Source of the DNA: an uncultured Gammaproteobacteria bacterium
GTDB taxonomy: Bacteria > Pseudomonadota > Gammaproteobacteria > JAADHQ01
Direction of reading: 5' to 3'
NCBI GenBank assembly: GCA_963807455.1
Contig: CAWECS010000016.1
Location: forward strand, 146,682-210,681
Length of the DNA: 64,000 nt
In this document: in pieces, positions 2,758-62,319 of the stretch
How the letters are laid out: each line of letters opens with the position of its first letter
How positions within the stretch are numbered: the stretch's first letter is position 1
The notes under the pieces: generated by a model
Databases searched by the model: none
Seen by the model: only the letters and a program-made list of their open reading frames with translations
What the model was told of the DNA's origin: nothing
Position numbers and translations under genes: made by a program

Positions 2758-4905
2758 ATGGTTATTAATAACACCAAACCCGTCATTATTACCGGCTTCG
2801 TTGCCATTTTGCTCATCTTTATGGTGTTGGTTGCCGTATGGGCAAACAGCCAGAGCCAGCAACATCAGCGTTTACTCAGGATTGACACCTTTAGACAGGC
2901 AGCCAAGAGTATTGGTGATATGCGCCAGGCCGCCCTCACACGGGCAGTGATCTTACATGAGATGACCTCACTGAATGAATTCTTTGAGCGCGATGAAAAA
3001 TACCAGGAGTTTAGTGAACAGGCAGGTTATTTTATTTTTGCCCGCGAAAAACTGCTGGCACTGGATCTCAGTGAGCAAGATAAATCCTTGTGGGAAAAAA
3101 CCAGGCGCGAGATTAGCGTCAACCAGCAAACCCAGATGATGACAGGGCAGCTACTACTGGATGGTCAGTTTGAAAGGGGACGGGAGTTGTTGAATGAAGT
3201 ACTGATTCCCCGGCAGCAAATAGTCATGCAATCCTTATCTGAAATATTTGAATACCATAACAAGCAGGTGGTTGAGGAATTTGCCCATGCAGCACGCAGT
3301 CAGCAAAATACCTACTCAATTATCATGCTGCTGACGGCGCTGGCTGTAATCATCAGTATCGGCATCATTATATATATTGTGCGTACCACCGCGCGCATTC
3401 AAAGCGACCTGCGCAGGGCCGATGAGGCCAGGATCGCCAACCAGATGAAGAGCGAATTCCTCGCCAATATGAGTCATGAAATCAGGACCCCATTGGGTTC
3501 CATTATCGGTTATTCAGAAGCGGCCCTGAGCCCAGGGCAGAGTCGCAATGAACGCATGGATGGCATTAGGACTATTCATCGCAATGGTATCCATCTGTTA
3601 TCTCTGATCAACGAGATACTGGATCTGTCCAAGGTAGAGGCGGGTAAACTGGACATGGAAATCATGCCGGTTTCACTGTTTGAAATCCTGCAGGATGTAA
3701 AGAATGTTGCCTGTGTAAAGTTACAGGAAAAAAAGTTACGCTGTGGCTTGAATTATAAATACCCGTTACCAGCCATGATCAATACTGACCCGATACGTTT
3801 GAAGCAGATTTTGCTCAACCTGGTCAATAATGCGATCAAATTTACTAGTAAGGGTCACATTTATATCAATGTCTGGTGTGTCCAGCAGGAAGAGAAGATA
3901 TATATTTCAATAGAGGATACTGGTATCGGTATCTCGGCAGAGCAGGCCGATAAGATATTTGATGCTTTCACGCAGGCCGACAAGAGTACAACGCGAAAAT
4001 ATGGCGGTACCGGCCTGGGACTGACCTTGTCACGTCGCCTGTCGAAAATGTTAGGCGGGGATATTACACTCGAGAGTACCCCGGGGCAAGGAAGTACCTT
4101 TACTGTTAGTGTCGAAACAGGTCCATTGAATAAGGAGCATTTCATCCATCAGGATAATCAAGTTGATATGGAATCCTTGCCTCAGGCAGCCAATGAAATG
4201 CCAGTGTTGGAAGGCAGGGTGTTATTGGTTGATGATGTTGAGGATAATCAGAAACTCGTTTCGTTCTTTATTCGTAAGACCGGCGCACAGGTCGATGTCG
4301 CAGCAAATGGTCAACAAGCCTTGGATATGATGCAGTTTGCAAAATATGATCTGGTATTGATGGATATGCAAATGCCGGTGATGGACGGTGTCGATGCTAC
4401 ACGTGAGATACGTTCGCGGAAATTCAAGGTGCCGGTTGTTATGTTGACTGCGAATGCCTATGCAAAAGACCGACTTGAATGCGAACAGGCCGGTGCCAAC
4501 GGTTTCATGACCAAGCCTACTAGTACTAGCCAAATCAATGAAGTGCTTATTAATTACCTTAAGCCGCATGAGAAATCGACTAAGTCCAGTAATCCCATTT
4601 ATTCTTCCCTGCTTGAAGAAGAACCGGGTTTGCAGGATATCGTTAACAAATTTGTCTATTACCTGCCGGAGCAGTTAAACACAATAGCGCATTTAATCGA
4701 TCAACAGGACTGGGATTTACTGGCTCGCCAGCTGCATGACCTGAAAGGAACAGCGGGTAATATGGGTTTTGCTGAAATCTATGATTGTGTTAGCGAGATG
4801 AGTTTATGCCTGCATGAAAAGGATTACAGGGAGCTGGACAACTATATGAGCAGGCTGCAAACACTAACGGCACGTACCAACACCGGAATGAGGGCACTGC
4901 CTTAG
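2758..4905 (+). CDS. Hybrid sensor histidine kinase / response regulator with C-terminal HPt domain
   Basis: 715 aa. N-terminal TM segment and periplasmic sensor region, a second TM segment, an H-box (MSHEIRTPLGSIIGY), an HATPase_c domain (N box LVNNAIKFT, G boxes DTGIGI...GGTGLGL), a receiver domain (LLVDDVEDNQ...LVLMDMQMPVMDG) and a C-terminal HPt motif (HDLKGTAGNMG). Confidence 0.85.
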   Translation: MVINNTKPVIITGFVAILLIFMVLVAVWANSQSQQHQRLLRIDTFRQAAKSIGDMRQAALTRAVILHEMTSLNEFFERDEKYQEFSEQAGYFIFAREKLLALDLSEQDKSLWEKTRREISVNQQTQMMTGQLLLDGQFERGRELLNEVLIPRQQIVMQSLSEIFEYHNKQVVEEFAHAARSQQNTYSIIMLLTALAVIISIGIIIYIVRTTARIQSDLRRADEARIANQMKSEFLANMSHEIRTPLGSIIGYSEAALSPGQSRNERMDGIRTIHRNGIHLLSLINEILDLSKVEAGKLDMEIMPVSLFEILQDVKNVACVKLQEKKLRCGLNYKYPLPAMINTDPIRLKQILLNLVNNAIKFTSKGHIYINVWCVQQEEKIYISIEDTGIGISAEQADKIFDAFTQADKSTTRKYGGTGLGLTLSRRLSKMLGGDITLESTPGQGSTFTVSVETGPLNKEHFIHQDNQVDMESLPQAANEMPVLEGRVLLVDDVEDNQKLVSFFIRKTGAQVDVAANGQQALDMMQFAKYDLVLMDMQMPVMDGVDATREIRSRKFKVPVVMLTANAYAKDRLECEQAGANGFMTKPTSTSQINEVLINYLKPHEKSTKSSNPIYSSLLEEEPGLQDIVNKFVYYLPEQLNTIAHLIDQQDWDLLARQLHDLKGTAGNMGFAEIYDCVSEMSLCLHEKDYRELDNYMSRLQTLTARTNTGMRALP

Positions 4906-13427: not shown

Positions 13428-14904
13428 ATGAGTGAAGAAATACTGATTAATGTGACCCCGAGAGAGACGCGTGTAGCGTTGGTAGAGAATGGTGTGTTAC
13501 AGGAGGTTTATATTGAACGGGAACGTAAACGCGGCATCGTCGGAAATATATATAAAGGCAAGGTTAGTCGAGTATTACCAGGGATGCAGGCCGCCTTTAT
13601 TGACATCGGTCTGGAACGTGCTGCCTTTTTACATGCCTCAGATATCAGCAGTGCAGTACTGATTGAAGCTGAAGAGTTGAATGCTGAAAAGCGTCAGAAT
13701 GAAATCGCAGACCTGGTCAGTGAAGGTCAGGATATACTGGTCCAGGTTATCAAGGATCCACTCGGTAGCAAGGGAGCCAGGCTCACCACACATATCACTG
13801 TGCCATCACGTTACCTGGTGCTATTACCCGGGGAAAATAATATTGGTATTTCCACTAAAATTGAAGACGAAGAAGAACGTAATCGCCTCAAAGATATCGT
13901 CACCTCCAAGAGTGAAAATCGAGAAGGCCATGGTTTTATAATCAGAACTGTTGCTGAAGGAATTGATGAGCAGGCGTTAATATCGGATCAAGAATTTTTA
14001 TCTAAACTATGGATCTCGATTAAGGAACAGATTGAAGTTGGCACAACCAGGATCCGTTGTCTATCAGGATTTGTCGCTGGCTATACGTACATTGCGTGAT
14101 CTTGTCGATGATCAAATAGAGAAAATCAGAGTTGATTCACGTGAAAGCTTTAACAAGCTGCAAGAATTCAGCCAACAGTTTGTTCCCCATATGACAGGGT
14201 GTCTGGAATATTATCCTGGTGAGCGACCCATTTTTGATTTGTATAATGTTGACGACGAATTGCAAAAGGCGCTAGACAGGAAAGTGCAACTTAAATCGGG
14301 AGGTTATCTGATTATTGATCAGACCGAGGCGATGACAACTATCGATGTCAACACCGGTGCCTATGTAGGTCATCGAAATCTGGAAGAAACTATATTTAAA
14401 ACCAACCTGGAAGCGGCGCAGGCTATCACTCGCCAGTTGAGATTACGTAATCTGGGTGGGATTATCATTATCGATTTTATTGATATGTCACTGGATGATC
14501 ACAAACGCCAGGTATTACGAGCATTAGAGAAAACTCTGGTTAAAGACCATGCCAAAAGTAATATTACCGAGGTTTCCAGTCTTGGGCTGGTAGAGATGAC
14601 GCGTAAAAGAACGCGCGAGAGTCTGGAGCATGTTTTGTGTGATGTATGTCCTACCTGCGATGGCAGGGGCTCGATAAAATCAGCAGAAACTGTTTGTTAT
14701 GAGGTTTTCAGGGAGATTATCCGTGAAGTAAGGCAATATGATGCCAAAAAGTTATTGGTACTGGCTTCGCAGGAGGTAGTCGACCTGTTACTGGATGAGG
14801 AAAGTGCAAGTCTCGCTGAGTTGGAGGCTTTTATTGAAGTTCCGATTAAATTTCAGGTGGAAGCCTTGTTTACACCTGAGCAATATGATGTTGTGTTAAT
14901 GTAG
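13428..14904 (+). pseudogene. rng: Ribonuclease G (RNase E/G family), interrupted by an apparent +1 frameshift near 14,035-14,060
   Basis: Two overlapping ORFs in different frames (13428-14099 and 14032-14904) together span a ~490-aa RNase G. The first has the S1 domain, the second the catalytic and Zn-link region (CDVCPTCDGRG). The switch point lies between ...KEQIEVG and VVYQDLSLAIRTL. Confidence 0.75.
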
Positions 14905-42979: not shown

Positions 42980-45044
42980 TCACATCTTCTTCGGTACAAA
43001 GAAAAATTCTCCTAGTCCGCCACCGTGTTTGACTGGAGCATATCGTGGAATTTGCTCAATATTATATTGGGCTGCAGTATTCTGTACATTGTCCGTGATT
43101 TGTTGATAGAGACGATAACCTTCGATGATTGACTGGTTTTTGTCGAGAGCGTCCAGAAAGGCACGTGCGAATACTGAATGATCTGCCGCCCCCAGCATCC
43201 AGAACAGGCTTGATACCACCGGATGTCATGACGATTCTGGCTCGAGTCTTGGACATGACCTTTATCCATCTGGCACGATGCTGAACATCATTCACACCGA
43301 GGCTCATACGGGTTTGTGCTGTACTGCTCATGGTGCCGGAGTAACAGGAATCAGCTATCACCAGGATATGCTTTGATTTAATGACATTGAGCATGTCAGT
43401 GATATCCAGATTAGATATCCAGTTTGCTGTATTTTCATTTTCAGCATCAACTGGCAACCAGTAACCACGCTGATTTTGTTGGTTGATTTCTCCATGTCCT
43501 GCATAGTAGATCAGTAAATTATCATTACTGGTTAGTTTGGAACTCAATTCATTTAACGCTGTTAATATACTATAGCGATCAGCATTCAGGATTAACTTGG
43601 TTTTGAAACCGTATTTATTACGGAGTATAGATTCAGTTTGTTTGGCATCATTGACGGCTGTTTTCAATGCAGGAAAATGTTGATAACGATTATTGCCAAT
43701 AATCAGTGCATGGTAATTACCAAAGGGTATTGATTGTATATCCTCATGCTCTGAAGGCGTTGACATGATTGTTTTTGTCGCTGGTGTTAGCGTATTAGTG
43801 GCAGCTTCGATGGCAAAGGCCAGACGAGCAACCCGTCCGCCTTTATCCACGGCAACCATCTTTACTTTGGTGGTCTGATTGCTTGCGTTCAGTGCGAGCT
43901 CAAATTTACCAGTGCTATTGATTTTGTGTTTTTGCCCATTGACGGTAAAACCGAGTATGCCGGCGGGCGCAGTGACGCGTCCAACAATATTATAGCGTTG
44001 TTGGTTGACCGGTAATTTGATTGTTGGCAGGCCTCGGGTCAGGATCAAAGGGTGCTGCAGAATGTTAATAGATGGGCCAGCCAGTTTCGTCAGATCATTG
44101 CTGACATTGGCGCTGGCTAAAAGTATTTTTTCGCTCAGTTGACTCTGGTTTTTGTTGAAATCATTTTGTAAGTCAGAAATAACATTTTGTTGTTGTGCAA
44201 TATTAGTCTTCAGATTCTGAATTTCGCGCTCATATGATAGAGTTTTTTCGTCAGTCGTGGTTTCAATAGCGAGGTATTGCTGGTTTTTTACCTGTAATTG
44301 CTTAAGCCGTTTAAGCGTTAAAGCCAATTGTTTTTTTCTATGTTGCAGCTGCCCATCAGTGCGAGAGAGTTTTTTGCGCAGGATATTAGTCTGTTGCTTG
44401 CTTGTCGCCACTTCACGCTGTAGTTTTTTCACTTCCTCCTGAGTAGAAGCGGCAATCGCGATATCGATGGATGATGCAAATTTTAGATCATTGTTGGTCA
44501 GTCCCGAGGCTTTGCGGTACCAGTTGATGGCTTTAACCAGATCTTTTTCTACGCCAAGTCCCTTTTCATAAAGGTAACCGAGATTGATTTCTGCTTTGTC
44601 ATTTCCAGACGCAGCAGCTTTTTCATACCAGAGGCGCGCCAGTTCATAATCGGGCGTAATACCCAGTCCTTTTTCATATATTTCACCGACATTAACCTGG
44701 GCATCGGCATTACCCTGTTTGGCCATTTCGAGCCAGACTTTCAAAGAGGTGCGGTAATCGGCGCGATTATAGGCAGTATATTCACCACCCCGAATCTCGC
44801 AATTGATAGCGCTGGTTCTGAGAGGGCGCCTGGCTGTCAGATAGCTTAACTGACCGCCCAGTTGGCGTACGACACCAGGTAGCAGACAATCGACAATAAA
44901 TAGTTTGTCGATATCTTTACGCGCCACCTGGGCGTGTTGCAAAGATTCATCCTGGATTTTTGGGCTGGTCGTGCCGATCGATTGGCAACCTGACAAAAGA
45001 GTCATCATCAGTGCAGCAAGAAAATACAAATTCCGTTTTATCAT
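42980..45044 (-). pseudogene. Sel1-repeat lipoprotein with coiled-coil region and C-terminal caspase (peptidase C14/CHAT-like) domain, with an apparent frameshift in a G5/C5 homopolymer near 43,189-43,193
   Basis: Lipobox LLSGC. Sel1 repeats (AQVNVGEIYEKGLGITPDY..., AEINLGYLYEKGLGVEKD...), a roughly 150-aa Q/K-rich coiled coil and a caspase His/Cys dyad (YYAGHG ... ADSCYSGT). The conserved HetF-type tail (...SGGIKPVLDAGG | HSVFARAFLDAL...) continues in the overlapping ORF 42980-43219 in another frame. Confidence 0.7.
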
Positions 45045-47752: not shown

Positions 47753-49168
47753 CTATTTGAGGTGCTCCAGTAATTTCAGGAGTGCCTCATGTCTAGGGCT
47801 GATACTCAAACCTTCCTCTACCAGGTTCAAGGCAGTCTGGTTGTTACCATTATCGATATATCCATTTGCCAGGCGTACGTAGACATCTGCAATTCTACTC
47901 AGACCAGACAACGCTTGAGGATTAGCAGGGTGGATTTCCAGGATCTGTTGATAGGCAGACAATGCATTGCTACCAGCAGGTTCAGTGTAACGCTGCACCA
48001 TCATGTGCGCATCCGCAATTTCCAGCAACGAAATTATTTTTTCCTGATCTGACGGGCTAAGTGTTTCAAAAGGAGTGGCGACGACGATATCAATACTCTG
48101 TTTATTGACATTCTGCACTAAGTAAAAAGTAAGCATTCCCAGTATGATCAGGGTACTGAAAATAGGCAAGGCCCAAAAACGAAAAGCTTCACCGGTAGAT
48201 CCAGGAATGAAATCATTTATAAATGCCTGGACACTGTCCGGGCGTTCTTCGCGTTTTGTGGACAGGCTTTTCGACAGTATTTTCCATTGTTTTCGTTTCA
48301 GTCCATCAATAGGCGTAGGCTGAATTCCCTGTTCGCTCGCCTGTGTGCAGGTCTTTCTATTAAATGGATGCTTACCCGTTAATAGTTCATAAGCTATGAT
48401 GGCGAGCGCGAAGACATCATCACGCGGTTCAGGTATTTCACCTTCCAGCATCTCACAACTGGCGTAACCAGGTGTTACTGCTCGCCGGGTGCCCTTGTTA
48501 AGAGACTCATGTACTTCGTGCATTTCATTCACCAGAAAAGCCCTGGCGATGCCGAAATCCAATACCTTGACTATGTTCTCATTGGTAATGAAAATATTGG
48601 CCGGTTTTAAGTCGCAATGGATGATATTCTTGCTGTGTGCGTAGATCAGTGCTTTGCCAACACTTTTAATGATGCTAAATGCTTCATTTCGCGGCATGAC
48701 AACGAGCTGGTCCTTCTTATAAATCTTATCGGATAACGCCTGACCCTTGAGATATTCCATGGTCATCATGAAAATATCACCGTCACGATCAAAGTCATGT
48801 ACGTTGACAATGTTTGGGTGGGAAAGCATCTGCGTTTTGCGTGTTTCCCGTTGCAGGTTAATAAAGTCTTTTTTAGGCGTTTTGCTGCCAGGTTTTAGCA
48901 GCTTGATAGCGACATAGGGGTCGGTATCCATGGCCTCAATCTTTCTCAGATCACGTGCCTTATAGACCACGCCCATGCCACCTTTAGCAATGATGGCATC
49001 GAGAATAAAACGGTCTTTCAGGGTCTTTTGTATAGGACGAGCTGAAGCGGGAGAGGACTTGGATGAAGCAGAAGCGTTGGAAGACGTTTGCCGGCGATGA
49101 TCATCTTTATCTTCAAGTAGATGAGTGACATCGTTGGATGCATCGTTTTTGTTATCCCCTGTTGACAT
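47753..49168 (-). CDS. Hanks-type serine/threonine protein kinase with one TM helix and a C-terminal TPR-like extracytoplasmic domain
   Basis: 471 aa. Kinase subdomains I (GKGGMGVVYKARD), VIb (HCDLKPANI) and VII (DFGIA). A hydrophobic segment (ALPIFSTLIILGMLTFYLV) is followed by a helical repeat tail. Convergent with the autotransporter, with 5 bp between the stops. Confidence 0.85.
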   Translation of the reverse strand: MSTGDNKNDASNDVTHLLEDKDDHRRQTSSNASASSKSSPASARPIQKTLKDRFILDAIIAKGGMGVVYKARDLRKIEAMDTDPYVAIKLLKPGSKTPKKDFINLQRETRKTQMLSHPNIVNVHDFDRDGDIFMMTMEYLKGQALSDKIYKKDQLVVMPRNEAFSIIKSVGKALIYAHSKNIIHCDLKPANIFITNENIVKVLDFGIARAFLVNEMHEVHESLNKGTRRAVTPGYASCEMLEGEIPEPRDDVFALAIIAYELLTGKHPFNRKTCTQASEQGIQPTPIDGLKRKQWKILSKSLSTKREERPDSVQAFINDFIPGSTGEAFRFWALPIFSTLIILGMLTFYLVQNVNKQSIDIVVATPFETLSPSDQEKIISLLEIADAHMMVQRYTEPAGSNALSAYQQILEIHPANPQALSGLSRIADVYVRLANGYIDNGNNQTALNLVEEGLSISPRHEALLKLLEHLK

Positions 49169-54095: not shown

Positions 54096-55139
54096 TTAGT
54101 TTAATTGCTTGATAAATTCGGTAATATCTTTCATTGTTTGATCCAGGTTGTTATTCCCAAGCATATGGTAACGTATGATCCCTTCCTTATTAATGATTAA
54201 AACAGTCGGTAAGATTGATATTTTGTATTGATTGGCTATTGTTTTATCATTGTCAGTAAGCAGATAATCAAACATATTTTCTGCAAGCTTCATTGTTTGT
54301 TCTGTTTTATCTTTATCCTCATCATAGTTAACTCCGACCCATATGGCATTTGAAGCATTCTTTATTTCAGACAATGATTTTAATAAGGTCAGGCAAGGTT
54401 CACACCATGATGCAAAGCTTACCATAATCCACACTTTACCATTTAGATTCTGCATTATAAGATTGGGCTGCTTTCTATCAAGCATGGTGGTAGCAAAGTT
54501 GGGTGCCTGTTGATTGAGTAAGCTATATTGGAGACCAGAGGCGCGTGGAGGTTCGGGCATTGCTTTTGGTTGGGGTAGTGTAAGTCGCGCCATGATAGCT
54601 GTGTATGGGTCACCAATACTGCTGACATCCTCATAAACCATTGCAAAATAGCCTGCGGAAGAAAACATTACAATTTCTCCGTTAGATAGCGATTGTTTTT
54701 GATCAAATTTACCAGGTTGCTGTTTTTTAAATTCCTCTTCAAGTTTTGATCCAGGTATTATTTGAATAGCACTAAACTTAACATCATTGTCACACCAGAA
54801 AAATATTTCTATGGCATCAAACTTGTCATGCTTAATATTACCGCTGAGAGATTTGTCTTTGCGGTAGGTTTTGATGAATTCTTTTGGATAATAACAGTTG
54901 CTTGCTTTTGTGATTTTAATTTCTGAGGTTTCTTTATCCTTTTCATAGTAAGTTAATGCAATATCCTGAATATCCCGTTCCTCGTTGATTATTGTTTGAG
55001 TAAAAGACACATGTATTGCCTTTTTCACATCATCACTGATGGTAACTGCATTAATTATTTCGCTAGTTACACTATTATCAGCATACAGTATTGTACTTAA
55101 AAGGCTTAATAGAGAAGCTAAAATAATTCTTATGTTCAA
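54096..55139 (-). CDS. Secreted two-domain protein: unknown N-terminal domain plus C-terminal TlpA/ResA-like thioredoxin fold
   Basis: 347 aa with signal peptide. C-terminal WCEPC active site in the motif VSFASWCEPCLTLL. The N-terminal roughly 200 aa are unassigned. Confidence 0.6.
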   Translation of the reverse strand: MNIRIILASLLSLLSTILYADNSVTSEIINAVTISDDVKKAIHVSFTQTIINEERDIQDIALTYYEKDKETSEIKITKASNCYYPKEFIKTYRKDKSLSGNIKHDKFDAIEIFFWCDNDVKFSAIQIIPGSKLEEEFKKQQPGKFDQKQSLSNGEIVMFSSAGYFAMVYEDVSSIGDPYTAIMARLTLPQPKAMPEPPRASGLQYSLLNQQAPNFATTMLDRKQPNLIMQNLNGKVWIMVSFASWCEPCLTLLKSLSEIKNASNAIWVGVNYDEDKDKTEQTMKLAENMFDYLLTDNDKTIANQYKISILPTVLIINKEGIIRYHMLGNNNLDQTMKDITEFIKQLN

Positions 55140-55378
55140 AATGTTTATCCTTGTTTAGCAAATCAATATACTACTACCTGGACCCCCACTTTAAACCTTT
55201 TATTTATTTATGCCTTATGATGGGTGTCAATTTTAGTTGATCTTAGTTGGTGCCATATATTATTGATAATTAAAGATATTATTATGATGAATATCTCGGT
55301 TTTTATATTAACATAGTGTTACTCTGCTAGAAATTATGGTGCTAGTTTAACTGAATGATAGGATTGGAGTTTGGTAAA

Positions 55379-56299
55379 ATGAATAAGATACAGCAGGTTT
55401 CCATCACAATAATTTTTATGATGATTACTTTTGATTGTTTTTCATGGACTATGGAATTCTCGTTTGATAAAGGTATTCCTGGTGAGAGGATATCTGAGTT
55501 TAGTGATTCATCAGGTACTTTGTATGATAATAGCATTAGCTACGAGGGTGAAAACTCCATACAAATGAATGTTAAAGAGGGTACAGCGGGCTTTGGGAAT
55601 TGGGGGGGAGTGAAAGACTTACCATCACCCTTAACAGATGGCGATACTTTATGGACGCGTATTAGCATGTTTGTTCCGACAGATTTTGATTTTACTACGA
55701 ACACAGGGTATTTAAAATTTCTTCGTTACAAAGTTAGTTCTGCTGAAAATACACATAGAGGTTATCAAGAGATCTTGATAGCTCAAAATGGTACTTTTCG
55801 TTTTGTCAGCGAACTAGGTAATACAGTCATTCTTCGAATGGCAAGTTCAAGTAGTAGTTTTCAGAGTGGTGATGGCATTGTTGGGTTAACCAGTGGGGAA
55901 ACCGGAACCCTACATGAGCAATATGCCAGCGATAGGTTATCTGTTAACTATACTAAAGGCGGCCCAAACTATATGGATGGTGAAACTATTAAAAACACTC
56001 GCACTGGCGCTACCGCGGTTGTATCTAGAGTTGCATCAAATAAAGTTACCGACTTTGGTTCAAGCAGTCCAATACAAAAAGGTGTGTGGGAAAATTTGTT
56101 ATTTGGTGTTAAGTTTGGTTCAAGCGACGCAAAGGTAGTTGTTTATAAAGAAGCTGGCGGATCAATGGGGCCTGACGGGAAAAGGCTTGGGGGTACCTAT
56201 GAACTCATTTTCACTAAAACAAGTGAACTGACTTTAACTGAACCAACCGATTTAGTTAAAAGTGTTGATTCATGGGGTCGGATCAAGCTTATGCTTTGA
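55379..56299 (+). CDS. Secreted hypothetical protein (beta-rich, Gly/Ser/Thr-rich)
   Basis: Start taken at MNKIQQ... with a hydrophobic signal region. No recognisable family. Confidence 0.4.
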   Translation: MNKIQQVSITIIFMMITFDCFSWTMEFSFDKGIPGERISEFSDSSGTLYDNSISYEGENSIQMNVKEGTAGFGNWGGVKDLPSPLTDGDTLWTRISMFVPTDFDFTTNTGYLKFLRYKVSSAENTHRGYQEILIAQNGTFRFVSELGNTVILRMASSSSSFQSGDGIVGLTSGETGTLHEQYASDRLSVNYTKGGPNYMDGETIKNTRTGATAVVSRVASNKVTDFGSSSPIQKGVWENLLFGVKFGSSDAKVVVYKEAGGSMGPDGKRLGGTYELIFTKTSELTLTEPTDLVKSVDSWGRIKLML

Positions 56300-56587: not shown

Positions 56588-57223
56588 TTATAACTTGTTG
56601 GCAATTGATTGACGTAGATTCGTAAAATTCTCTGCCAGTAAATTTACTAATTCTGTAGATGAGTTCACCTGTTGCAGGGGTTCTCCTATCACAACATCGC
56701 AATTGAATGGAACAAGCAGTGCTTCGCCACGAGGTAGCGCTTTACCTAGTCCATACATAAAAACAGGAGTAATACCGATTTCATTACGGTCTTTGAGAAG
56801 ATAATACATACCCTTTTTGGGTCGGGATGTTTGCTCGGGTATGCCACGAGTCCCTTCAGGAAATAAAATCAAGATGTCTCCATTATCCAATGCCTGATGG
56901 CATTCCTGAAATAGGGTTTCTTTATTCAATTTGCCTGAGCGATTTAAGGGAATGATGCCGATAATTCTCAATGAGAACCAAGCGAAAAATGGATTAGATA
57001 AAAAATAATCGGCAGCTGCCACAGGCCGAATTTTATGTATTAGAGATAAGGGGTACAGACTCATAAGAACCAAAGTGTCCAGATGACTATTGTGATTGGC
57101 TGCAATCACAGCGGGTCCTTTTTTAGGTAATAAACTGCGCTGACGTACATTGAGTCCGAGTACGATTAAAACCAATGGTCTGACGATCACAGCAAAAAAT
57201 AAAATTTTCAGAAAACGATCCAT
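56588..57223 (-). CDS. Lysophospholipid acyltransferase family protein (PlsC-like 1-acyl-glycerol-3-phosphate acyltransferase)
   Basis: 211 aa. HX4D motif (NHNSHLDTL) and FPEGTRG motif. Last gene of a seven-gene codirectional lipid operon. Confidence 0.8.
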   Translation of the reverse strand: MDRFLKILFFAVIVRPLVLIVLGLNVRQRSLLPKKGPAVIAANHNSHLDTLVLMSLYPLSLIHKIRPVAAADYFLSNPFFAWFSLRIIGIIPLNRSGKLNKETLFQECHQALDNGDILILFPEGTRGIPEQTSRPKKGMYYLLKDRNEIGITPVFMYGLGKALPRGEALLVPFNCDVVIGEPLQQVNSSTELVNLLAENFTNLRQSIANKL

Positions 57224-57229
57224 GATTTA

Positions 57230-58165
57230 TTAATAATATAAATAGTAGATATAATGAAAGAAAAGTGGTGCCGTGTAAATCAGGCTATCCATGCGATCGA
57301 GTATGCCACCATGCCCCGGTATAAGGTTGCCACTGTCCTTAATTTGCAAATCACGCTTGACAGATGAGATGACGACATCGCCAATGAAGCCTCCCGAGCT
57401 GATGATGGCTCCGGCAAAAAAACCTTCGAAGATAGAGAGTGGAGTAAGTAATGGGGCAGTAAGCCCTGCTACAATGGTAATGCTTAACAGTCCACCTATG
57501 AAGCCCTCCCACGTTTTATTTGGGCTGACTTTGGGTATTATCCTATGCTTTCCAAGCATCTTCCCCCATATATACTGACAAACATCATTAAATTGCGTCA
57601 TAAATAGTAAATACAATACTAATCCGATTGGGCCGGCTAGGGTGTTTTTCTCTGGCAGTACGAGTAAATAAGCGATATGACTAACAGAAAAGACAGTGAG
57701 CATAACAGCCCAATGCAAGATCCCCGCTGATTTGATGAAGCCATCAGTATCACCGGTTAATACCATGCGCATTGGAATGAACAAGAACATATACACGGGT
57801 ATAAAAATTATAAACATGCCATACCAGCCAGATGCAACCCAGTAATATTGAACCGGGATGGATAAGTAAGCCCAGAATAGTACGCGGCGGTCTGTTTCTC
57901 GCGTAGGTATGATTGAAAAAAACTCTTTTAGTGCAAGAAAACTGAGAAAACCGAAAAAAATAATAGCACTGTTCATACTGATAGATAGGAATAAAAATAA
58001 TAACCCGACCATCCACCACCAGGATGTAATGCGGAGTTTGAGTTCAGTGTAGTCTTTTTCTGGATTTCTATATGTTAGTAATCGTTGAATGAAAACAGCA
58101 ATAATGAGTAGGCCCAGGACGCCTGTCATGGCATAAAACGAGTGTGGTGGTACTTGAGCTATCAC
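57230..58165 (-). CDS. cdsA: Phosphatidate cytidylyltransferase (CDP-diacylglycerol synthase)
   Basis: 311 aa polytopic membrane protein with the CdsA signature ...KRDLQIKDSGNLIPGHGGILDRMDS... and a KTWEG motif. Confidence 0.85.
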   Translation of the reverse strand: MIAQVPPHSFYAMTGVLGLLIIAVFIQRLLTYRNPEKDYTELKLRITSWWWMVGLLFLFLSISMNSAIIFFGFLSFLALKEFFSIIPTRETDRRVLFWAYLSIPVQYYWVASGWYGMFIIFIPVYMFLFIPMRMVLTGDTDGFIKSAGILHWAVMLTVFSVSHIAYLLVLPEKNTLAGPIGLVLYLLFMTQFNDVCQYIWGKMLGKHRIIPKVSPNKTWEGFIGGLLSITIVAGLTAPLLTPLSIFEGFFAGAIISSGGFIGDVVISSVKRDLQIKDSGNLIPGHGGILDRMDSLIYTAPLFFHYIYYLYY

Positions 58166-58177
58166 AATGTATTCCTT

Positions 58178-58624
58178 TCAGGTAGCCAAAATTATAATTA
58201 CGGCGACTAATGTAACTTGAGCGCAACAAATGACCACCTGTTTTTTAAATAGGTTTAAACAGCCTTTAAGACGTGTATCAAGACTGCGATCCATTTTATT
58301 AGAATTAATTAATCTGAGTCTGATTAACGATTGATCCAAAGATGAAAGGGCGTCTTCAATGCTATCCTCGCTGTTAGTTATTCGAGTCAGTAGCGCTTGA
58401 TCAAATCCAATACGAATAGCCAGTATGATTTCTGCGAGTCCCAGAACTATTGTAATTGATAAAAGAATCATCAGCGCAGATGAAAGCAAGTTGAACACGA
58501 GTAGTACTGCCATGATAACAAGTGCAGCTACCGTTACTAGGCTGGATAGAAAATTTACTTTCCGATGTTGATCGAGTAAATCAATGCAGGTATGAATGGT
58601 GGCGATATCGCTATTATCTGTCAT
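58178..58624 (-). CDS. Small integral membrane protein, hypothetical (operon member)
   Basis: 148 aa with 3-4 predicted TM helices. Its ATG overlaps the stop of the upstream phosphatase gene. Confidence 0.4.
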   Translation of the reverse strand: MTDNSDIATIHTCIDLLDQHRKVNFLSSLVTVAALVIMAVLLVFNLLSSALMILLSITIVLGLAEIILAIRIGFDQALLTRITNSEDSIEDALSSLDQSLIRLRLINSNKMDRSLDTRLKGCLNLFKKQVVICCAQVTLVAVIIILAT

Positions 58625-59100
58625 TTTTTTACCCGATAATCTTTCTCAATGGATTTTAACAATTGGTAATCGGTATCTTTTATGACCAATCGAGGTCTTG
58701 ATTGTCTGACGATACTAATAGCCTCGGCACTAGTATTAGCTCTTCCGGAGTAAATTAACCAGGAAATAACGGCAAGTGAACTACGTGAATAACCCAGGGC
58801 GCAGCAAACCAGGACGGAACCCGTATTACTTGCTATTTCAATTGTTTTTGCAGCTTCAATCAGCAGTTTTTTATCAGGAGTGAGTAAGTCGAGTGTAGGA
58901 AAAGCATGCCAGTTTATTGTATTGATTGGTGCGGGTAACTCTGCGGACAAATCAATTACTGTGTTGTACTGTCCATCCTTAATGTCATTTCGTGTCGGGA
59001 ATCTTCCTAGATATACATTTTCCAGGATGTTGTCAGCATTGTTATCGTGGCGTGTCCAAAGCCTGGAATTTAACCACGCTCCGATAAGATACGGGAACAA
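58621..59100 (-). CDS. Dual-specificity phosphatase family protein (CX5R catalytic loop, PTPMT1/PGP-phosphatase-like)
   Basis: 159 aa. Active-site loop VLVCCALGYSRSS (C-X5-R followed by S). The size and the neighbouring CdsA and CDP-alcohol transferase suggest a lipid-phosphate substrate. Confidence 0.7.
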   Translation of the reverse strand: MFPYLIGAWLNSRLWTRHDNNADNILENVYLGRFPTRNDIKDGQYNTVIDLSAELPAPINTINWHAFPTLDLLTPDKKLLIEAAKTIEIASNTGSVLVCCALGYSRSSLAVISWLIYSGRANTSAEAISIVRQSRPRLVIKDTDYQLLKSIEKDYRVKK

Positions 59101-59948
59101 GAGCCATTCGATGCAGGACTTATCTTGCCATCAGGCGATTTTTGAAATCCTTTTACACCGATAAAAAGATAAAAGGTGCATACAAAAATCAAAGAAATGG
59201 CAGGCCAGATTAACCATAAAGTGGCTCCACGGAATAAAATTGCTGTTATGGTCAGCAGGCTCGCTGTTAAGGCATAGTAGGCAGCTAGTCGTAGACGGCG
59301 TTGCTGGTAACTCATACATTCTTTAACCAGAGGAGAGTTTCCGTCATCTGGCCAGAGCCAAATACATAGCCACCCTAATAGTGCTCCAGTGGGAACGTCA
59401 ATAAAATGGTGCTGAAAAGTCGTGAGCACAGAAGCCCCGATGAGTATAGTCACGACATGAATCTGCCAAATCAAAAAATTGGGTACATGTCGTCGATATA
59501 AAACCCATAAAATGACAAGCAAGATAATGTGTAACGAAGGTGCTTGATTAAATGGTTTATCAAAACTGGTCAGGGTATCGAACAGAACCCCGGATACACC
59601 ACTGGTATCAGGGCGTTCGAAACTGAATGTCAGCGGAAATAGAAAAAAGCAGATGACAGCAATTATTTGTGCAGTGACCAGTCTTTTAGCATGCGTGTCG
59701 AGTTCAAATTTGTTTTTGCAAACAAACAGAGAAACACCATAAAATGCATCTATCATCCAGTAAGGAATTATACTCCAGGCAATAAAGGGAATGTATTGTT
59801 CCCAGCCAAAGAAAATACTACCTACGTTACTTAATTGTGACGTATAGCCATTTACTGAGCCATAAGATATAAAAAAGAAAGGCCCCAGAAACAATAACCA
59901 CAACAAAGCGCGTTGCCATGGACGCGGTTCAACAAGAAACTCGGTCAT
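59070..59948 (-). CDS. PAP2-superfamily membrane phosphatase/phosphotransferase-like protein
   Basis: 292 aa polytopic. PAP2 motif C2-like APSLH and C3-like QHHFID. Overlaps the downstream phosphatase gene by 31 nt. Confidence 0.5.
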   Translation of the reverse strand: MTEFLVEPRPWQRALLWLLFLGPFFFISYGSVNGYTSQLSNVGSIFFGWEQYIPFIAWSIIPYWMIDAFYGVSLFVCKNKFELDTHAKRLVTAQIIAVICFFLFPLTFSFERPDTSGVSGVLFDTLTSFDKPFNQAPSLHIILLVILWVLYRRHVPNFLIWQIHVVTILIGASVLTTFQHHFIDVPTGALLGWLCIWLWPDDGNSPLVKECMSYQQRRLRLAAYYALTASLLTITAILFRGATLWLIWPAISLIFVCTFYLFIGVKGFQKSPDGKISPASNGSCSRILSERG

Positions 59949-61711
59949 ACAGGGTTTCTTATCGCTAGTGAGACTGTGAATATTCCAAATTCATCAATTC
60001 GTTGTTCAATCTTGGTAAAGCCAGCAGCCTCTACCAACTGATCCATTTCCTCCTGAGTGCGTCGACGCATAATCCAGGATTGCCCCTGACGGTGACTGGT
60101 GAGAGCACGGGCAATCATCTCCAATTGGGGATGCCAGGGCTGATTGGTGTAGATTAAATAACCGCCTTCCATAATAGTGGAGGCAAACCCTTGTAATGAC
60201 GATGTAATTAAACTGTTATCGGAGAATAATTCATATAAGCCAGAGACCACGCCAATGGATGGGTTAGTATCACCTGCTGTATAGTTGCTTGCATCGAAGG
60301 CATCAGACTTAATGAACGATGCTATGGAGTCAAGTCCCATTTGTTTGATAAGTGCACTTCCCAGTGTGACATTAATATCACTATAATCACGTAGCAAAAT
60401 TGATTCAGGTTTAATGTCGCCTTTATTAAGTGCCTCAAGGATGTAACGGCCATGACCGGCTGCCACATCCATCACATGGATTGGCTTGTCCTGTTCATTG
60501 AGATAACGGAAGGCCAGTTGCAGCATCTCTTCTATATTAGTTTTTCGCTGTCGTATTCCACGCCAGCCAATTGCATTGATATATGCATGATCCATCCATT
60601 TCCCCAGAGGTGTCAGGCCATTAACCTCATTTCGGTATACATAATCAAGTGTGCTACCAGAATCAAAGCCAGTTTTGTGGCCTAGCTTGATGCCCTCAGA
60701 CAGCAACCCTCCCAGTTTTAAATTCAAGCGAGTAAATGCCCAATACAGTCCACGGAGAGAGAATGGCGAGAGTGGAGTAGCTAAAGTGTCTGCCTCATAG
60801 CGGGTGAAGCCGGTTTTATCCGCGTCAAGCAAACAGGGTCTGGAATAAGGTTCATTAAATCGTAATGAGATAAAGTCATGTATTTTATTTAACACCAGGG
60901 CACGATCACGTTCTCCCAGGGTATCGTGAAAAAAGCCTTCGAGGATATGCCTTTCCTTTATGGGACTGCCAAGACGTTCGTAAAATTCATGTTGAGGTTT
61001 GTGGTGTACTACCCAGTCAGCACCGGAGATGAGTAATTGAGTCGGAATGTTAATAGCGGCTGCATCGCTCACGATTCGTTCAGCAGTTTCATATAAAGCG
61101 ATCAGAATATTGACTGAAATAGGTCGCGATATCAGTTCATCGGATTCATATGAGCTAACACGCTCCGGATCATGCGTCAGGAACTTGGCTTTCACATAAC
61201 TATTAACAAAAAAGTTACCACGAAGGCGCTGCATTATTTTCAATGCCGGACGTGCGAAAGGGACATAAAGTTTGACCTTGAATGCAGGAGAGGCCAAGAT
61301 CATGCAGCGGATCTTTGGAGCATAATCATGCGCCCATGTTGACACAATAACAGCGCCGACACTTTGTGCAATAACAGCCATGTCCTTTACCGCTATTTCA
61401 TATTGAGTGGATATGTGGTCGATAAAGGTCTGCACATCCCGTACTGAAGTCGCCAGGCTTGGGCTAAAACCGCGTTCTCCCGGAGAACGGCCATGCCCGC
61501 GTGCATCCCAGGCAAAGCAGGCATAATCCGGCATATCGAGTTCATCAACGACGTGCATTAATCGCCCTGAATGCTCATGACCGCGATGAAACAATACAAT
61601 CGCTCCTTTAGGTGTTTCAGATTGAGAGGGCCAATAACGGTAAAACAATTCGACACCATCGTGAGTAGAAAAATTCTTTTCTACGACTTCCCTGTTATTT
61701 TTATGCATCAT
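59945..61711 (-). CDS. Bifunctional alpha/beta-hydrolase / class I SAM-dependent methyltransferase fusion protein
   Basis: 588 aa. The N-terminal roughly 290 aa are a lysophospholipase-like alpha/beta hydrolase (HRGHEHSGR, nucleophile elbow IAQSVGA). The C-terminal roughly 280 aa have the Rossmann MTase motif I (VMDVAAGHGRY). Confidence 0.75.
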   Translation of the reverse strand: MMHKNNREVVEKNFSTHDGVELFYRYWPSQSETPKGAIVLFHRGHEHSGRLMHVVDELDMPDYACFAWDARGHGRSPGERGFSPSLATSVRDVQTFIDHISTQYEIAVKDMAVIAQSVGAVIVSTWAHDYAPKIRCMILASPAFKVKLYVPFARPALKIMQRLRGNFFVNSYVKAKFLTHDPERVSSYESDELISRPISVNILIALYETAERIVSDAAAINIPTQLLISGADWVVHHKPQHEFYERLGSPIKERHILEGFFHDTLGERDRALVLNKIHDFISLRFNEPYSRPCLLDADKTGFTRYEADTLATPLSPFSLRGLYWAFTRLNLKLGGLLSEGIKLGHKTGFDSGSTLDYVYRNEVNGLTPLGKWMDHAYINAIGWRGIRQRKTNIEEMLQLAFRYLNEQDKPIHVMDVAAGHGRYILEALNKGDIKPESILLRDYSDINVTLGSALIKQMGLDSIASFIKSDAFDASNYTAGDTNPSIGVVSGLYELFSDNSLITSSLQGFASTIMEGGYLIYTNQPWHPQLEMIARALTSHRQGQSWIMRRRTQEEMDQLVEAAGFTKIEQRIDEFGIFTVSLAIRNPV

Positions 61712-62319
61712 TAAATCCCCGCCTTTTCCTTTAATCCATTTTTGATTCGATTAGTAATCGTAAGTGTGAGTAATGCAGCCATAATGGGTATAAGCCAGAA
61801 CAACCAGCCAGGTAATTGGCCCACAGTGCCAACCCATAGACCTAACGCGCCAAATATAAAAGCTCGATCACTTTTACCAAGCGGACCATCATATCGACGT
61901 GTAGCCCCAACTGACAGCGCTAACACGCCCGTGTATTCACTTAATACAGACAGAAAAATAACCAATCCTACCGTCAGACTGTCAAAGGGATAAATCAGAA
62001 CAAAGGGAATATATAGAGCAGTGTCAGAAACGACATCACAGAGTTCATTTAAATATGAACCCAATGCTGATTTTTGATCATGTTCACGTGCTAACATGCC
62101 ATCGATGGCATTCAATGCCATACGTAAAAACATCCAGACGGGTAATAATAGAAATAGGCCAGTGTTCTGTGTGTTAAGAAATAAGAAAGCACCAAGGAAA
62201 ACAGAGCCAACCGCCGCAGCAATCGTAACCTGGTTTGCGGTGATGCCCATTGTAGCGAGTTGTTTAACCAATGGGCGTAGTAAAGCCTGGAACCCGGGTT
62301 TTATGTCATAGAGCGTCAT
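61711..62319 (-). CDS. CDP-alcohol phosphatidyltransferase family protein (PgsA/PIP-synthase-like)
   Basis: 202 aa. Signature DGMLAREHDQKSALGSYLNELCDVVSD, matching the D-G-x2-A-R-x8-G-x3-D-x3-D pattern. First gene of the operon. Confidence 0.85.
   Translation of the reverse strand: MTLYDIKPGFQALLRPLVKQLATMGITANQVTIAAAVGSVFLGAFLFLNTQNTGLFLLLPVWMFLRMALNAIDGMLAREHDQKSALGSYLNELCDVVSDTALYIPFVLIYPFDSLTVGLVIFLSVLSEYTGVLALSVGATRRYDGPLGKSDRAFIFGALGLWVGTVGQLPGWLFWLIPIMAALLTLTITNRIKNGLKEKAGI

Follow-up and report, generated by a model that had tools for sequence, protein, structure and literature searches.

The open reading frame (ORF) at 58621-59100 on the minus strand of the analyzed DNA (hereafter the window, a 64,000-nucleotide stretch of a contig from an uncultured gammaproteobacterium) is almost certainly no separate gene, but the C-terminal dual-specificity phosphatase (DSP) domain of an Arc1C-type (PA2539-type) fusion whose N-terminal part is a PAP2 membrane domain. 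On balance, it is probable that the window carries a frameshifted copy of this fusion gene within an arc1-type pathway, in which the DSP would perform the dephosphorylation proposed below. The relevant features are the following.

56588-57223, minus strand: PlsC-like lysophospholipid acyltransferase in the Arc1E/PA2537 role (Pfam Acyltransferase, 74.8 bits; 74 of 81 loci)
57230-58165, minus strand: CdsA-like phosphatidate cytidylyltransferase of the second-copy type in the Arc1F/PA2536 role (Pfam CTP_transf_1, 231 bits; 73 of 81 loci)
58178-58624, minus strand: small 148-aa membrane protein in the Arc1D/PA2538 position (no Pfam match; kept in 38 of 40 diverse loci)
58621-59106, minus strand: half of the Arc1C-type gene predicted to be cytoplasmic, with the Cys-based DSP domain behind an interfacial helix, WLLFPYLIGAWLNSRLWTR (frame -2; Pfam DSPc, AF2, Foldseek, tblastn)
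58783-58803, minus strand: CX5R P-loop, C100-A-L-G-Y-S-R106, then S107 (catalytic Cys and Arg family-invariant)
58888-58890, minus strand: Asp71 in PTLDLL, putative general-acid Asp of the DSP (invariant column D71/D354)
59107-59108, minus strand: frameshift site, where the codon that joins ...PAS in frame -3 to WLLFPYL in frame -2 is reduced to two bases (AA)
59109-59948, minus strand: N-terminal 8-TM PAP2 domain, same gene as the DSP (frame -3; Pfam PAP2 30.3 bits, PAP2_3 23.4 bits)
59397-59423, minus strand: PAP2 C3-type motif TTFQHHFID (His, His and Asp invariant; C3 Arg replaced by Val)
59529-59549, minus strand: PAP2 C2-type motif NQAPSLH (Ser and His invariant)
59945-61711, minus strand: Arc1B/PA2540 orthologue in which a monoacylglycerol-lipase-like alpha/beta hydrolase is joined to a SAM methyltransferase (Methyltransf_20)
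61711-62319, minus strand: CDP-alcohol phosphatidyltransferase, Arc1A/PA2541 orthologue, PIP/AIP-synthase-like (Pfam family match significant)

Gene structure and operon context

The ORF comprises 159 codons from a TTG start that has no Shine-Dalgarno (SD) sequence upstream; in the source record the 159-aa product is uncalled and a truncated 292-aa PAP2 product is called. In tblastn alignments, homologue residues 1-118 matched frame -3 (59462-59109) and residues 120 onward matched frame -2 (from 59106), and because the alignment switches frame there, one base of one codon is missing at 59107/59108. The switch falls exactly at a point where the homologues run continuous, and at this codon (alignment column 281; three-frame translation) they carry one residue, usually R, K or Q. 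As assembled, the PAP2 ORF (59070-59948, minus strand) reaches a stop at 59070 after a 12-residue out-of-frame tail, and the repaired reading frame encodes a 442-aa protein with the 8-TM PAP2 domain followed by the DSP domain.

Relatives of the repaired protein are encoded by at least 588 species genomes. A total of 4579 database proteins matched at E<=1e-10, nearly all of the top 120 of which are 430-490 aa long with both PAP2 and DSPc, and an exhaustive search placed the DSP at residues ~280-440 in every full-length match. Residues ~5-437 were matched as a single stretch in the 80 best loci kept, which have the same architecture and invariant motifs as the window gene, and PAP2-DSP is a single uninterrupted ORF in 79 of the 81 fetched loci. 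The model of a full-length homologue (pLDDT 91) reached a pTM of 0.89, implying a fixed arrangement of the two domains. The window copy keeps all 70 family-invariant and 60 of the 63 near-invariant residues, and it carries the linker and loop signature GFQK...PYxxGAxxNSRxWT (in the form PYLxGAxxNSRLWT) followed by the invariant CALGYSRS; the one-base gap at 59107/59108 is what departs from the single reading frame of an Arc1C-type PAP2/DSP. A sequence-only reading of the ORF had described a protein of roughly 160 aa with the architecture of PTPMT1, the mitochondrial phosphatidylglycerophosphate (PGP) phosphatase. Given the frame switch and the fusion in 79 of 81 loci, the ORF instead forms the 3' portion of a longer gene, and this gene structure by itself largely refutes a stand-alone PTPMT1 enzyme.

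The PAP2-DSP gene is the third of six translationally coupled genes, and the window shows the operon context of Arc1C-type proteins, namely an arc1-type operon of CDP-alcohol transferase, hydrolase-methyltransferase, PAP2-DSP, small TM protein, CdsA and PlsC that is kept across Proteobacteria and Acidobacteriota. The partner genes other than that of the small membrane protein were each found in 71-80 of the 81 loci. The gene of the small membrane protein, present in 38 of 40 diverse loci, starts 4 nt inside the end of the DSP reading frame. The adjacency to CdsA and a CDP-alcohol transferase claimed earlier thus holds, as both genes (57230-58165 and 61711-62319) lie in the same tightly packed minus-strand string. 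On the other hand, the 'PgsA-like' label given to the transferase was not supported, since this protein scores best against archaetidylinositol-phosphate (AIP; 75 bits) and PIP synthase (49 bits) models and reaches only 20 bits with pgsA. Its signature is the variant NxxDGxxARx8Gx3Nx3D, in contrast to the canonical D1xxD2GxxARx8Gx3D3x3D4; the metal-binding Asp residues D1 and D3 are replaced by Asn in the window protein and in 68 of 69 orthologues, and the chemistry of such an Asn-substituted transferase may be non-standard. Among 40 diverse loci, neither a further gene family nor a head-group synthesis gene (e.g., inositol-phosphate synthase) was found to be conserved beside the cluster, and a scan for promoters and terminators gave a result no better than chance. 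A Ser/Thr kinase gene is located at 47753-49168, outside the conserved neighborhood.

It has been reported that arc1A-F, which corresponds to PA2541-PA2536 of Pseudomonas aeruginosa, is induced by Gac/Rsm and protects the cells against attacks by type VI secretion (PMC8926400, PMC12663445), and the PA2536-41 operon has been read as a specialized PG-synthesis-like pathway (Ting et al. 2022, PMC8926400). Published deltaPA2541 primers match three of our loci (L086, L087 and L089), and the primer placed at the beginning of PA2541 falls on the start of a transferase homologue that is 56% identical to the window protein. Downstream in these primer-anchored loci are a hydrolase-methyltransferase homologue (64-65%) and then a PAP2 domain with 58% identity to that of the window (the PA2539 N-terminus in L089); the fetched P. 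aeruginosa loci end before the DSP part of PA2539, and the PA2539 comparison covers the N-terminal part. The anchoring matches were obtained with the 20-mer F1 primer, and a metagenome scan with a 24-mer from the deletion primer, which probably spans the deletion junction, gave no matches. By sequence comparison, the window genes are orthologous to arc1A-C and lie in the same order as PA2541-PA2539. Moreover, Arc1C/PA2539 is named 'phosphatase PAP2/dual specificity phosphatase family protein' by NCBI, and the gene set and order A-B-C-D are common to the window. The two systems differ in that PlsC precedes CdsA in Pseudomonas arc1 whereas CdsA precedes PlsC in the window, and in that the window PAP2-DSP copy is frameshifted, unlike Arc1C/PA2539; Gac/Rsm regulation and the anti-T6SS phenotype have been described for P. 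aeruginosa only. The host has a GC content of ~43%, and its cluster proteins have their closest counterparts in MAGs of Mariprofundaceae and Sedimenticolaceae.

Origin of the frameshift

The loss of one base is most likely a consensus error in a metagenome-assembled contig, an explanation that we hold with moderate confidence, and otherwise a very recent mutation. An assembly error is favored because the RNase G gene of the same window (13428-14904), 45 kb from PAP2-DSP, is likewise split by a frameshift and because all of the invariant residues are kept. The other possibility, which appears rather doubtful, is that the deletion is genuine, so that the gene is a pseudogene and no DSP is made, or PAP2 and DSP are made separately by reinitiation, leaving the operon crippled or rewired. 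The frameshift is present in the deposited contig, whose record calls the truncated PAP2 product, and the site is no homopolymer; the RNase G frameshift also lies outside homopolymers. In the Logan assembly of ERR12040029, contigs stop at window position 59807 and restart at 58537, with 58538-59806, including the frameshift site, uncovered, and the unitigs differ from the window at 6 positions; this combination of breaks on both flanks and sequence differences suggests population variation and would be compatible with a real deletion. However, the invariant residues are intact on either side of the shift, all other operon genes are intact in the window, a conserved housekeeping-type gene such as RNase G is broken in the same manner, and reinitiation at the DSP would have to proceed from a start that lacks an SD sequence. 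Exact-sequence look-ups of the truncated products led back to the same NCBI/ENA record only.

Two further explanations were considered and rejected. Programmed frameshifting is contradicted by the absence of a slippery heptamer at GCATCGAATGG and by the 79 of 81 orthologues that need no shift. Natural stand-alone forms of the DSP were rejected as well, as the short relatives in the database are assembly fragments in frameshift-riddled arc1 clusters: the three whose genomic context was placed on long contigs (P0016, P0028 and P0049; P0035, from Gilliamella, was left out) all lie within arc1 clusters full of other broken genes.

Phosphatase domains and the PTPMT1 question

The CX5R loop noted in the sequence-only reading was confirmed, with CALGYSR encoded at 58783-58803 (the segment VLVCCALGYSRSS at 58777-58815, minus strand, spans it) in an ORF that scores against Pfam DSPc (37.8 bits versus a gathering score of 33.5, E 2e-9) and whose AlphaFold model (pLDDT 93.8) has the DSP fold. 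The Cys, Arg, Ser and Asp of the DSP are invariant across the family; Asp71 is situated in a WPD-type loop, (P)xLDL, ~29 residues ahead of the Cys, and the residue preceding the catalytic Cys varies (C, T, A or S) and is never His. Pfam score, fold and the Cys/Arg/Asp residues together place the domain in the Cys-based DSP superfamily, and the ORF, its CX5R/DSP fold and its CdsA and transferase neighbors are far beyond chance. Both the fold and the P-loop are generic, and they do not discriminate among lipid, protein and nucleotide substrates. No biochemical characterization of any PAP2-DSP family member or its substrate was found in the searchable literature.

The best sequence and fold matches to the window DSP are small archaeal PTPs, namely Tk-PTP (PDB 5Z59/5Z5A/5Z5B) and the engineered ShufPTP (9E9L), which reached 45-48 bits with the family profile (E 7e-12 to 6e-11) and were also the best Foldseek matches (E 6e-11, TM 0.76-0.81). 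These archaeal enzymes are soluble, stand alone and carry an HC(X5)R loop, whereas the window DSP appears to be tethered to the membrane, lacks a His ahead of the Cys and is only ~25% identical to them. PTPMT1 obtained 33.2 bits with the same profile (E 2e-7), VHR and MKP5 obtained 32.8 bits, the phmmer hit to PTPMT1 had an E-value of 0.55 (around rank 36), and in Foldseek PTPMT1 ranked 17th and 33rd with the same TM-score as any DSP. The window domain does not resemble PTPMT1 more closely than it does other DSP subfamilies and is not specifically PTPMT1-like. The loop sequence of PTPMT1 is CKAGRSR. A CX5R loop containing basic residues has been described as a hallmark of that enzyme (Teh et al. 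2013, PMC3576122), and the family-invariant CALGYSR is without them.

A stand-alone PTPMT1-type enzyme of ~160 aa, with its own gene in the operon and orthologous to the mitochondrial and Rhodopirellula PGP phosphatases, is therefore very improbable. The window DSP does share with PTPMT1 and its Rhodopirellula baltica orthologue the Cys-based DSP superfamily, the CX5R motif, the general-acid Asp and membrane association via a preceding helix; the family profile aligns PTPMT1 over its whole length, and a PTPMT1-type PGP phosphatase in a bacterium has precedent (PMC3576122). However, the ORF extends a PAP2 ORF in 79 of 81 loci, begins at an uncalled TTG without an SD sequence and has a P-loop lacking the basic residues named for PTPMT1; the archaeal PTPs score 12-15 bits higher, VHR and MKP5 equal PTPMT1, and the short stand-alone relatives are assembly fragments. 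Unlike the small stand-alone PTPMT1 (~200 aa), the domain is the C-terminal part of a 442-aa 8-TM PAP2 fusion.

The earlier remark that bacteria normally use PgpA/B/C instead overlooks the PAP2 domain, of the PgpB superfamily, on the same polypeptide. Its catalytic His/His/Asp residues are invariant in the family, and it has the fold assignment, the C2 PSLH and the C3 HxxxD in common with PgpB/PAP2 lipid phosphate phosphatases and with PAP2-type phosphotransferases (LpxT; sphingomyelin and IPC synthases). In contrast to PgpB-type PAP2 enzymes, the domain has an invariant Pro instead of the C1 Lys (the C1 Arg being only 80% conserved) and Val at the C3 Arg position, and it comes with two additional TM helices and with the C-terminal DSP. 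Transferase-type PAP2 enzymes typically keep the catalytic triad alone. Judged by its motifs, the window domain, which is without the phosphate-binding C1 Lys and C3 Arg of PgpB-type hydrolases, looks more like this type. With regard to topology, ~15 K+R residues were counted in the predicted cytoplasmic segments versus ~3 in the predicted periplasmic segments that hold the PAP2 motifs, and the linker into the DSP is positively charged; this charge distribution predicts a periplasmic PAP2 site and a cytoplasmic DSP, on opposite membrane faces.

Proposed pathway and implications

In the pathway that we propose, PlsC and CdsA would supply a private pool of CDP-diacylglycerol, which the transferase would join to a phosphorylated alcohol. 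Glycerol-3-phosphate would be the simplest choice, as the cluster has no conserved gene for head-group synthesis. A phosphatase would be needed because AIP and PIP synthases, to which the transferase is closest, yield products with a terminal phosphate. The DSP, held at the cytoplasmic membrane face where the CDP-alcohol transferase acts, would remove this phosphate, which is PTPMT1's job in mitochondria and by analogy may be common to both; it could do so because the charge distribution places it in the cytoplasm. The PAP2 domain, with its catalytic motifs in the periplasm, would carry out a second, separate lipid-phosphate hydrolysis or transfer. The analysis itself shows the fold, the gene structure, the conservation, the orthology to arc1 and the membership in the operon; the topology, the substrate and the sequence of reactions are inferences. 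The sequence-only reading had predicted a eukaryote-style dephosphorylation step encoded inside the operon. The dedicated step is reasonable for a Cys-based phosphatase beside CdsA and a PIP/AIP-like transferase, as the nearest relatives of the latter make phosphorylated lipid intermediates, and what falls away is the eukaryote-style PTPMT1 identity. Tentatively, with a chance somewhat short of even, we assign the transferase product as the substrate of the DSP.

Other roles for the DSP may also be envisaged. E. coli PgpB, a PAP2 enzyme, is a PGP phosphatase, and by analogy the PAP2 domain could itself dephosphorylate the intermediate, leaving the DSP another role. The DSP might then be a phosphatase for other lipids of the cytoplasmic leaflet (PA, LPA or diacylglycerol pyrophosphate) while the periplasmic PAP2 processes the intermediate in the manner of PgpB. 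Such an arrangement, which we regard as unlikely, is consistent with the proven PGP phosphatase activity of PgpB-type PAP2 enzymes (PMC3576122), with the monoacylglycerol-lipase-like hydrolase of the operon, which would fit a breakdown from PA via DAG to MAG, and with the protection that arc1A provides against lipase effectors (PMC12663445). However, the PAP2 domain is without the two phosphate-binding residues of PgpB-type hydrolases (C1 Lys and C3 Arg), and production of the intermediate would take place on the cytoplasmic side, which is also the predicted location of the DSP. Considerably less probable is a membrane-tethered regulatory protein phosphatase that acts on pSer, pThr or pTyr and controls the pathway enzymes or signaling. 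The closest solved relatives (Tk-PTP, MKPs and VHR) are indeed protein phosphatases and the window contains the Ser/Thr kinase gene mentioned above, but the kinase lies outside the conserved neighborhood, and the DSP is rigidly fused to a lipid enzyme and always found within a lipid-synthesis operon.

These findings correct the gene model and remove the claim of a eukaryote-style stand-alone enzyme, and what remains in the window is an orthologue of an already described operon, probably in a mis-assembled copy. They also sharpen the question of which lipid arc1 makes and why its central enzyme has two unrelated phosphatase domains, which is of interest as arc1 is a major, widespread determinant of survival under T6SS attack. 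One speculative answer is that Arc1C proteins are 'two-faced' lipid phosphatases, in which the cytoplasmic DSP would be a dedicated phosphatidyl-alcohol-phosphate phosphatase for the Asn-variant transferase and the periplasmic, triad-only PAP2 would hydrolyze or transfer the head group, which together with the lipase-methyltransferase might generate an undescribed envelope lipid that shields Gram-negative bacteria from T6SS lipase effectors. If this is true, the family would represent a class of CX5R phosphatases for lipid intermediates that arose in bacteria, independently of PTPMT1. The domains predicted on opposite membrane faces, the triad-only PAP2 and the conserved Asn/Asn transferase signature provide hypotheses for mutagenesis and lipidomics in P. 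aeruginosa.

Gene model of the phosphatase

The sequence-only reading had placed a stand-alone PTPMT1-like phosphatase of about 160 aa at 58621-59100, beside CdsA and a CDP-alcohol transferase. The following features were found at this site.

58777-58815, minus strand: VLVCCALGYSRSS, the CX5R-bearing stretch, within the 159-codon ORF
58621-59100, minus strand: dual-specificity phosphatase (DSP) ORF, 159 codons by ORF call, from TTG at 59100 to the stop at 58621
59070-59948, minus strand: PAP2 ORF, 292 codons (Pfam PAP2), directly upstream of the DSP ORF

The 159-codon ORF matched Pfam DSPc with 37.8 bits (gathering score 33.5; E 2e-9), its AlphaFold2 model (56 sequences; mean pLDDT 93.8) had the alpha/beta topology of dual-specificity phosphatases, and all Foldseek matches of this model were Cys-based phosphatases; therefore, the CX5R motif and the DSP fold are real, and a chance match is ruled out. 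While motif, fold and neighbours were borne out, the gene model was wrong: the "160-aa protein" is a frameshift artefact, which in homologues is continuous with the upstream PAP2 ORF. No Shine-Dalgarno sequence was found at the TTG, and the 159-aa product is absent from the gene calls of the source record.

The PAP2 and DSP ORFs overlap by 31 nt in different frames, and their junction (...GFQKxxDGRxSxAARWLLAPYLxGAWINSRLWTR...) is unbroken in partial and full-length homologues. By tblastn, residues 1-118 of the database homologue P0012 aligned in frame -3 (59462-59109) and residues 120 onward in frame -2 from 59106. The same frame switch was seen with four further homologues. Exactly one residue is missing between the two frames, its place being occupied by two bases (59107-59108), and restoring one base yields a 442-aa protein. 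When one genome per species was scanned, at least 588 genomes were found to encode a relative, and the best 80 loci kept matched residues ~5-437 of the repaired protein as a single stretch. A single unbroken PAP2-DSP ORF was present in 79 of 81 fetched loci. Among 4579 database proteins at E<=1e-10, the best 120 were nearly all 430-490 aa long with PAP2 and DSPc, and when 1.84 billion representatives were searched exhaustively with HMMER, the DSP lay at residues ~280-440 in every full-length match. Judged from these homologues, the PAP2-DSP fusion is the normal state of the family. A natural short stand-alone form was rejected: the short DSP relatives (190-250 aa) on long contigs (fetched loci L001, L090 and L091) lie in arc1 clusters (described below) whose other genes are also fragmented, including several Hydrolase_4 pieces and a truncated CdsA, and these proteins are assembly or pseudogene fragments.

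The frameshift at 59107-59108 is rather probably an assembly artefact. A genuine recent lesion would agree with the lack of a homopolymer at either this site or a second frameshift site in RNase G (13428-14904), and with an independent Logan assembly of run ERR12040029 around the PAP2-DSP gene, which matches the window at 99.9% yet is broken on either flank of that gene. Such a lesion nevertheless appears less likely, since the repaired protein retains every one of the 70 invariant residues of the family and 60 of the 63 near-invariant ones, the remaining operon genes are all intact, and RNase G is split in the same manner. The Logan unitigs (L083 and L084) show 6 mismatches in 8.2 kb against the window and leave 58538-59806 uncovered, and the break could reflect strain-level variation in just that gene. 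Programmed frameshifting is unlikely, because a slippery site is absent and the orthologues require no shift. With an assembly error as the preferred origin, the locus is a new, probably mis-assembled member of the arc1 family.

RNase G, the second broken gene in the 64 kb, consists of two overlapping ORFs in consequence of a frameshift, which suggests either that the assembly contains indel errors or that the genome is eroding.

13428-14099, plus strand: RNase G ORF1, S1 domain and RNase_E_G positions 1-78
14032-14904, plus strand: RNase G ORF2, RNase_E_G positions 81-270 and a thioredoxin-like domain

The operon and its relation to arc1

Seven minus-strand ORFs lie head to tail, with stops and starts overlapping or nearly abutting, and correspond to six genes once the split gene is repaired.

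61711-62319, minus strand: CDP-alcohol phosphatidyltransferase
59945-61711, minus strand: 588 aa, Hydrolase_4 alpha/beta hydrolase fused to Methyltransf_20
58621-59948, minus strand: PAP2-DSP, repaired
58178-58624, minus strand: 148-aa membrane protein, no Pfam family, in the position of Arc1D/PA2538
57230-58165, minus strand: CdsA-like cytidylyltransferase
56588-57223, minus strand: PlsC-like acyltransferase

The hydrolase half of the 588-aa fusion matched monoacylglycerol lipases (E 1e-20 to 1e-17). The operon partners were present in 71-80 of the 81 loci, which were drawn from Pseudomonas, Xanthomonadales, Acidobacteriota, Alphaproteobacteria, Rhodocyclales, Mariprofundaceae and Sedimenticolaceae. 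By blastp clustering of 40 taxonomically diverse loci, the gene of the small membrane protein immediately followed that of PAP2-DSP in 38, and no further gene family, notably no head-group synthesis enzyme, was conserved beside the cluster.

In P. aeruginosa, PA2541-PA2536 were named arc1A-F ("antagonism resistance cluster 1"), a Gac/Rsm-induced cluster required for survival of Burkholderia thailandensis T6SS attack (Ting et al. 2022, eLife, PMC8926400). Five of its six genes are related to phospholipid metabolism, four resembling phosphatidylglycerol-synthesis enzymes, and the genes of the core pathway lie at other places in the genome (PMC8926400). A 2025 study recovered arc1 in a CRISPRi screen and showed that arc1A contributes to lipase-effector resistance (PMC12663445), and a 2026 comparative-genomics paper listed these genes for P. 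protegens as a "membrane phospholipid remodelling module". Three metagenome loci (L086, L087 and L089) contain the published primer sequences for deltaPA2541, and in them the primer with the PA2541 start codon falls where a homologue of the window transferase begins (56% identity); homologues of the hydrolase-methyltransferase (64-65%) and the PAP2 domain (58%) follow, and the loci stop short of the DSP part of PA2539. By sequence, the window operon is tied directly to arc1 through these primer-anchored loci. The operon family is already known genetically, and the window holds a new member. A literature search found no paper identifying the arc1 lipid product or assaying any Arc1 protein.

With the genes lettered as in arc1A-D, the order is A-B-C-D-CdsA-PlsC in the window, A-B-C-D-PlsC-CdsA in Pseudomonas and Xanthomonadales, and A-CdsA-PlsC-B-C-D in metagenome-assembled genomes of Mariprofundaceae and Sedimenticolaceae (L002, L006 and L028).

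Several other genes of the window were also noted. A hybrid sensor histidine kinase (2758-4905, plus strand) has its best NCBIfam match, well below cut-off, to the BarA/GacS type and is of interest only because P. aeruginosa arc1 is Gac/Rsm-controlled. A 660-aa protein (43062-45044, minus strand) has an EACC1-associated-type caspase-like domain and lies near a 471-aa Ser/Thr protein kinase (47753-49168, minus strand). Antiphage kinases (MADS6, BREX PglW) are among the weaker NCBIfam matches of this kinase; it and the caspase-like protein could form a defence-related island. A 314-aa ORF (55355-56299, plus strand) separates the operon from a thioredoxin-fold protein (54096-55139); this ORF has a hydrophobic stretch at its N-terminus and matches no Pfam family.

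Catalytic domains and proposed pathway

A Rhodopirellula PTPMT1 orthologue was shown to be a PGP phosphatase (Teh et al. 2013, PMC3576122), and therefore a CX5R enzyme with this activity has a precedent in bacteria. The same study names basic residues within the CX5R motif as a feature of PTPMT1. In the family alignment, the P-loop C-A-L-G-Y-S-R-S is invariant and lacks basic residues, its Cys is preceded by a variable position and not by a fixed His, and an invariant Asp lies ~29 residues upstream of the Cys. The nearest solved structures by sequence were the archaeal Tk-PTP and the engineered ShufPTP (single-sequence E 3e-7 to 1e-5, family-profile E 7e-12 to 6e-11), whereas PTPMT1 reached E 0.55 in the single-sequence search and 33.2 bits in the profile search, level with VHR and MKP5 (32.8). 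TM-scores were 0.73-0.85 for every DSP, PTPMT1 ranking 17th and 33rd (Foldseek). P-loop, profile scores and fold ranks mark the domain as a distinct bacterial DSP clade and not a PTPMT1 orthologue, leaving the proposed PTPMT1 architecture and affinity unsupported; these comparisons say nothing on the substrate.

The transferase scored 75 bits against the archaetidylinositol-phosphate synthase model, 49 against PIP synthase and only 20 against pgsA, and its best solved relatives were mycobacterial and Renibacterium PIP synthases. The lipids made by enzymes of this PIP/AIP-synthase type carry a terminal phosphate and are formed at the cytoplasmic face. In its signature, NxxDGxxARx8Gx3Nx3D, Asn replaces the first and third metal-binding Asp of D1xxD2GxxARx8Gx3D3x3D4, as in 68 of 69 orthologues (loci L002-L081). 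This conserved variant is not known from a described family, and the chemistry may be non-standard.

Helix boundaries were taken from a full-length model of the database homologue P0067 (pLDDT 91.2, pTM 0.89), and charges were counted over 49 family members. About 15 Lys+Arg fall on one side (N-terminus, short loops after TM2 and TM4, loop after TM6, linker after TM8) and about 3 in the loops bearing the PAP2 C1/C2 and C3 motifs. The positive-inside rule would put the active site of PAP2 in the periplasm, as in PgpB, and the DSP at the cytoplasmic face, tethered by the invariant GFQK...PYxxGAxxNSRxWT linker, in which case the two catalytic centres could not share one leaflet. The PAP2 domain (59109-59948, minus strand; family alignment A3) retains no more than the His/His/Asp triad: an invariant Pro stands in place of the C1 Lys, Val replaces the C3 Arg, and the C1 Arg occurs in 39 of 49 sequences (80%). 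Such a triad-only pattern is typical of transferase-type PAP2 enzymes, and the domain may be of phosphotransferase rather than hydrolase type.

In the simplest order proposed, PlsC would be followed by CdsA, the transferase and a DSP-catalysed dephosphorylation, with the PAP2 domain performing a second job outside. The DSP may, tentatively, be a functional analogue of PTPMT1 acting on the transferase product; of the sequence-only reading, the dephosphorylation step within the operon is plausible, while the PTPMT1 identity is unsupported and the PAP2 half had been overlooked. By analogy with PgpB for PGP, it might instead be the PAP2 domain that dephosphorylates the intermediate. At the level of the family, testable questions are posed by the pair of phosphatase domains predicted to face opposite sides of the membrane, by the variant signature of the transferase and by the putative protective lipid.
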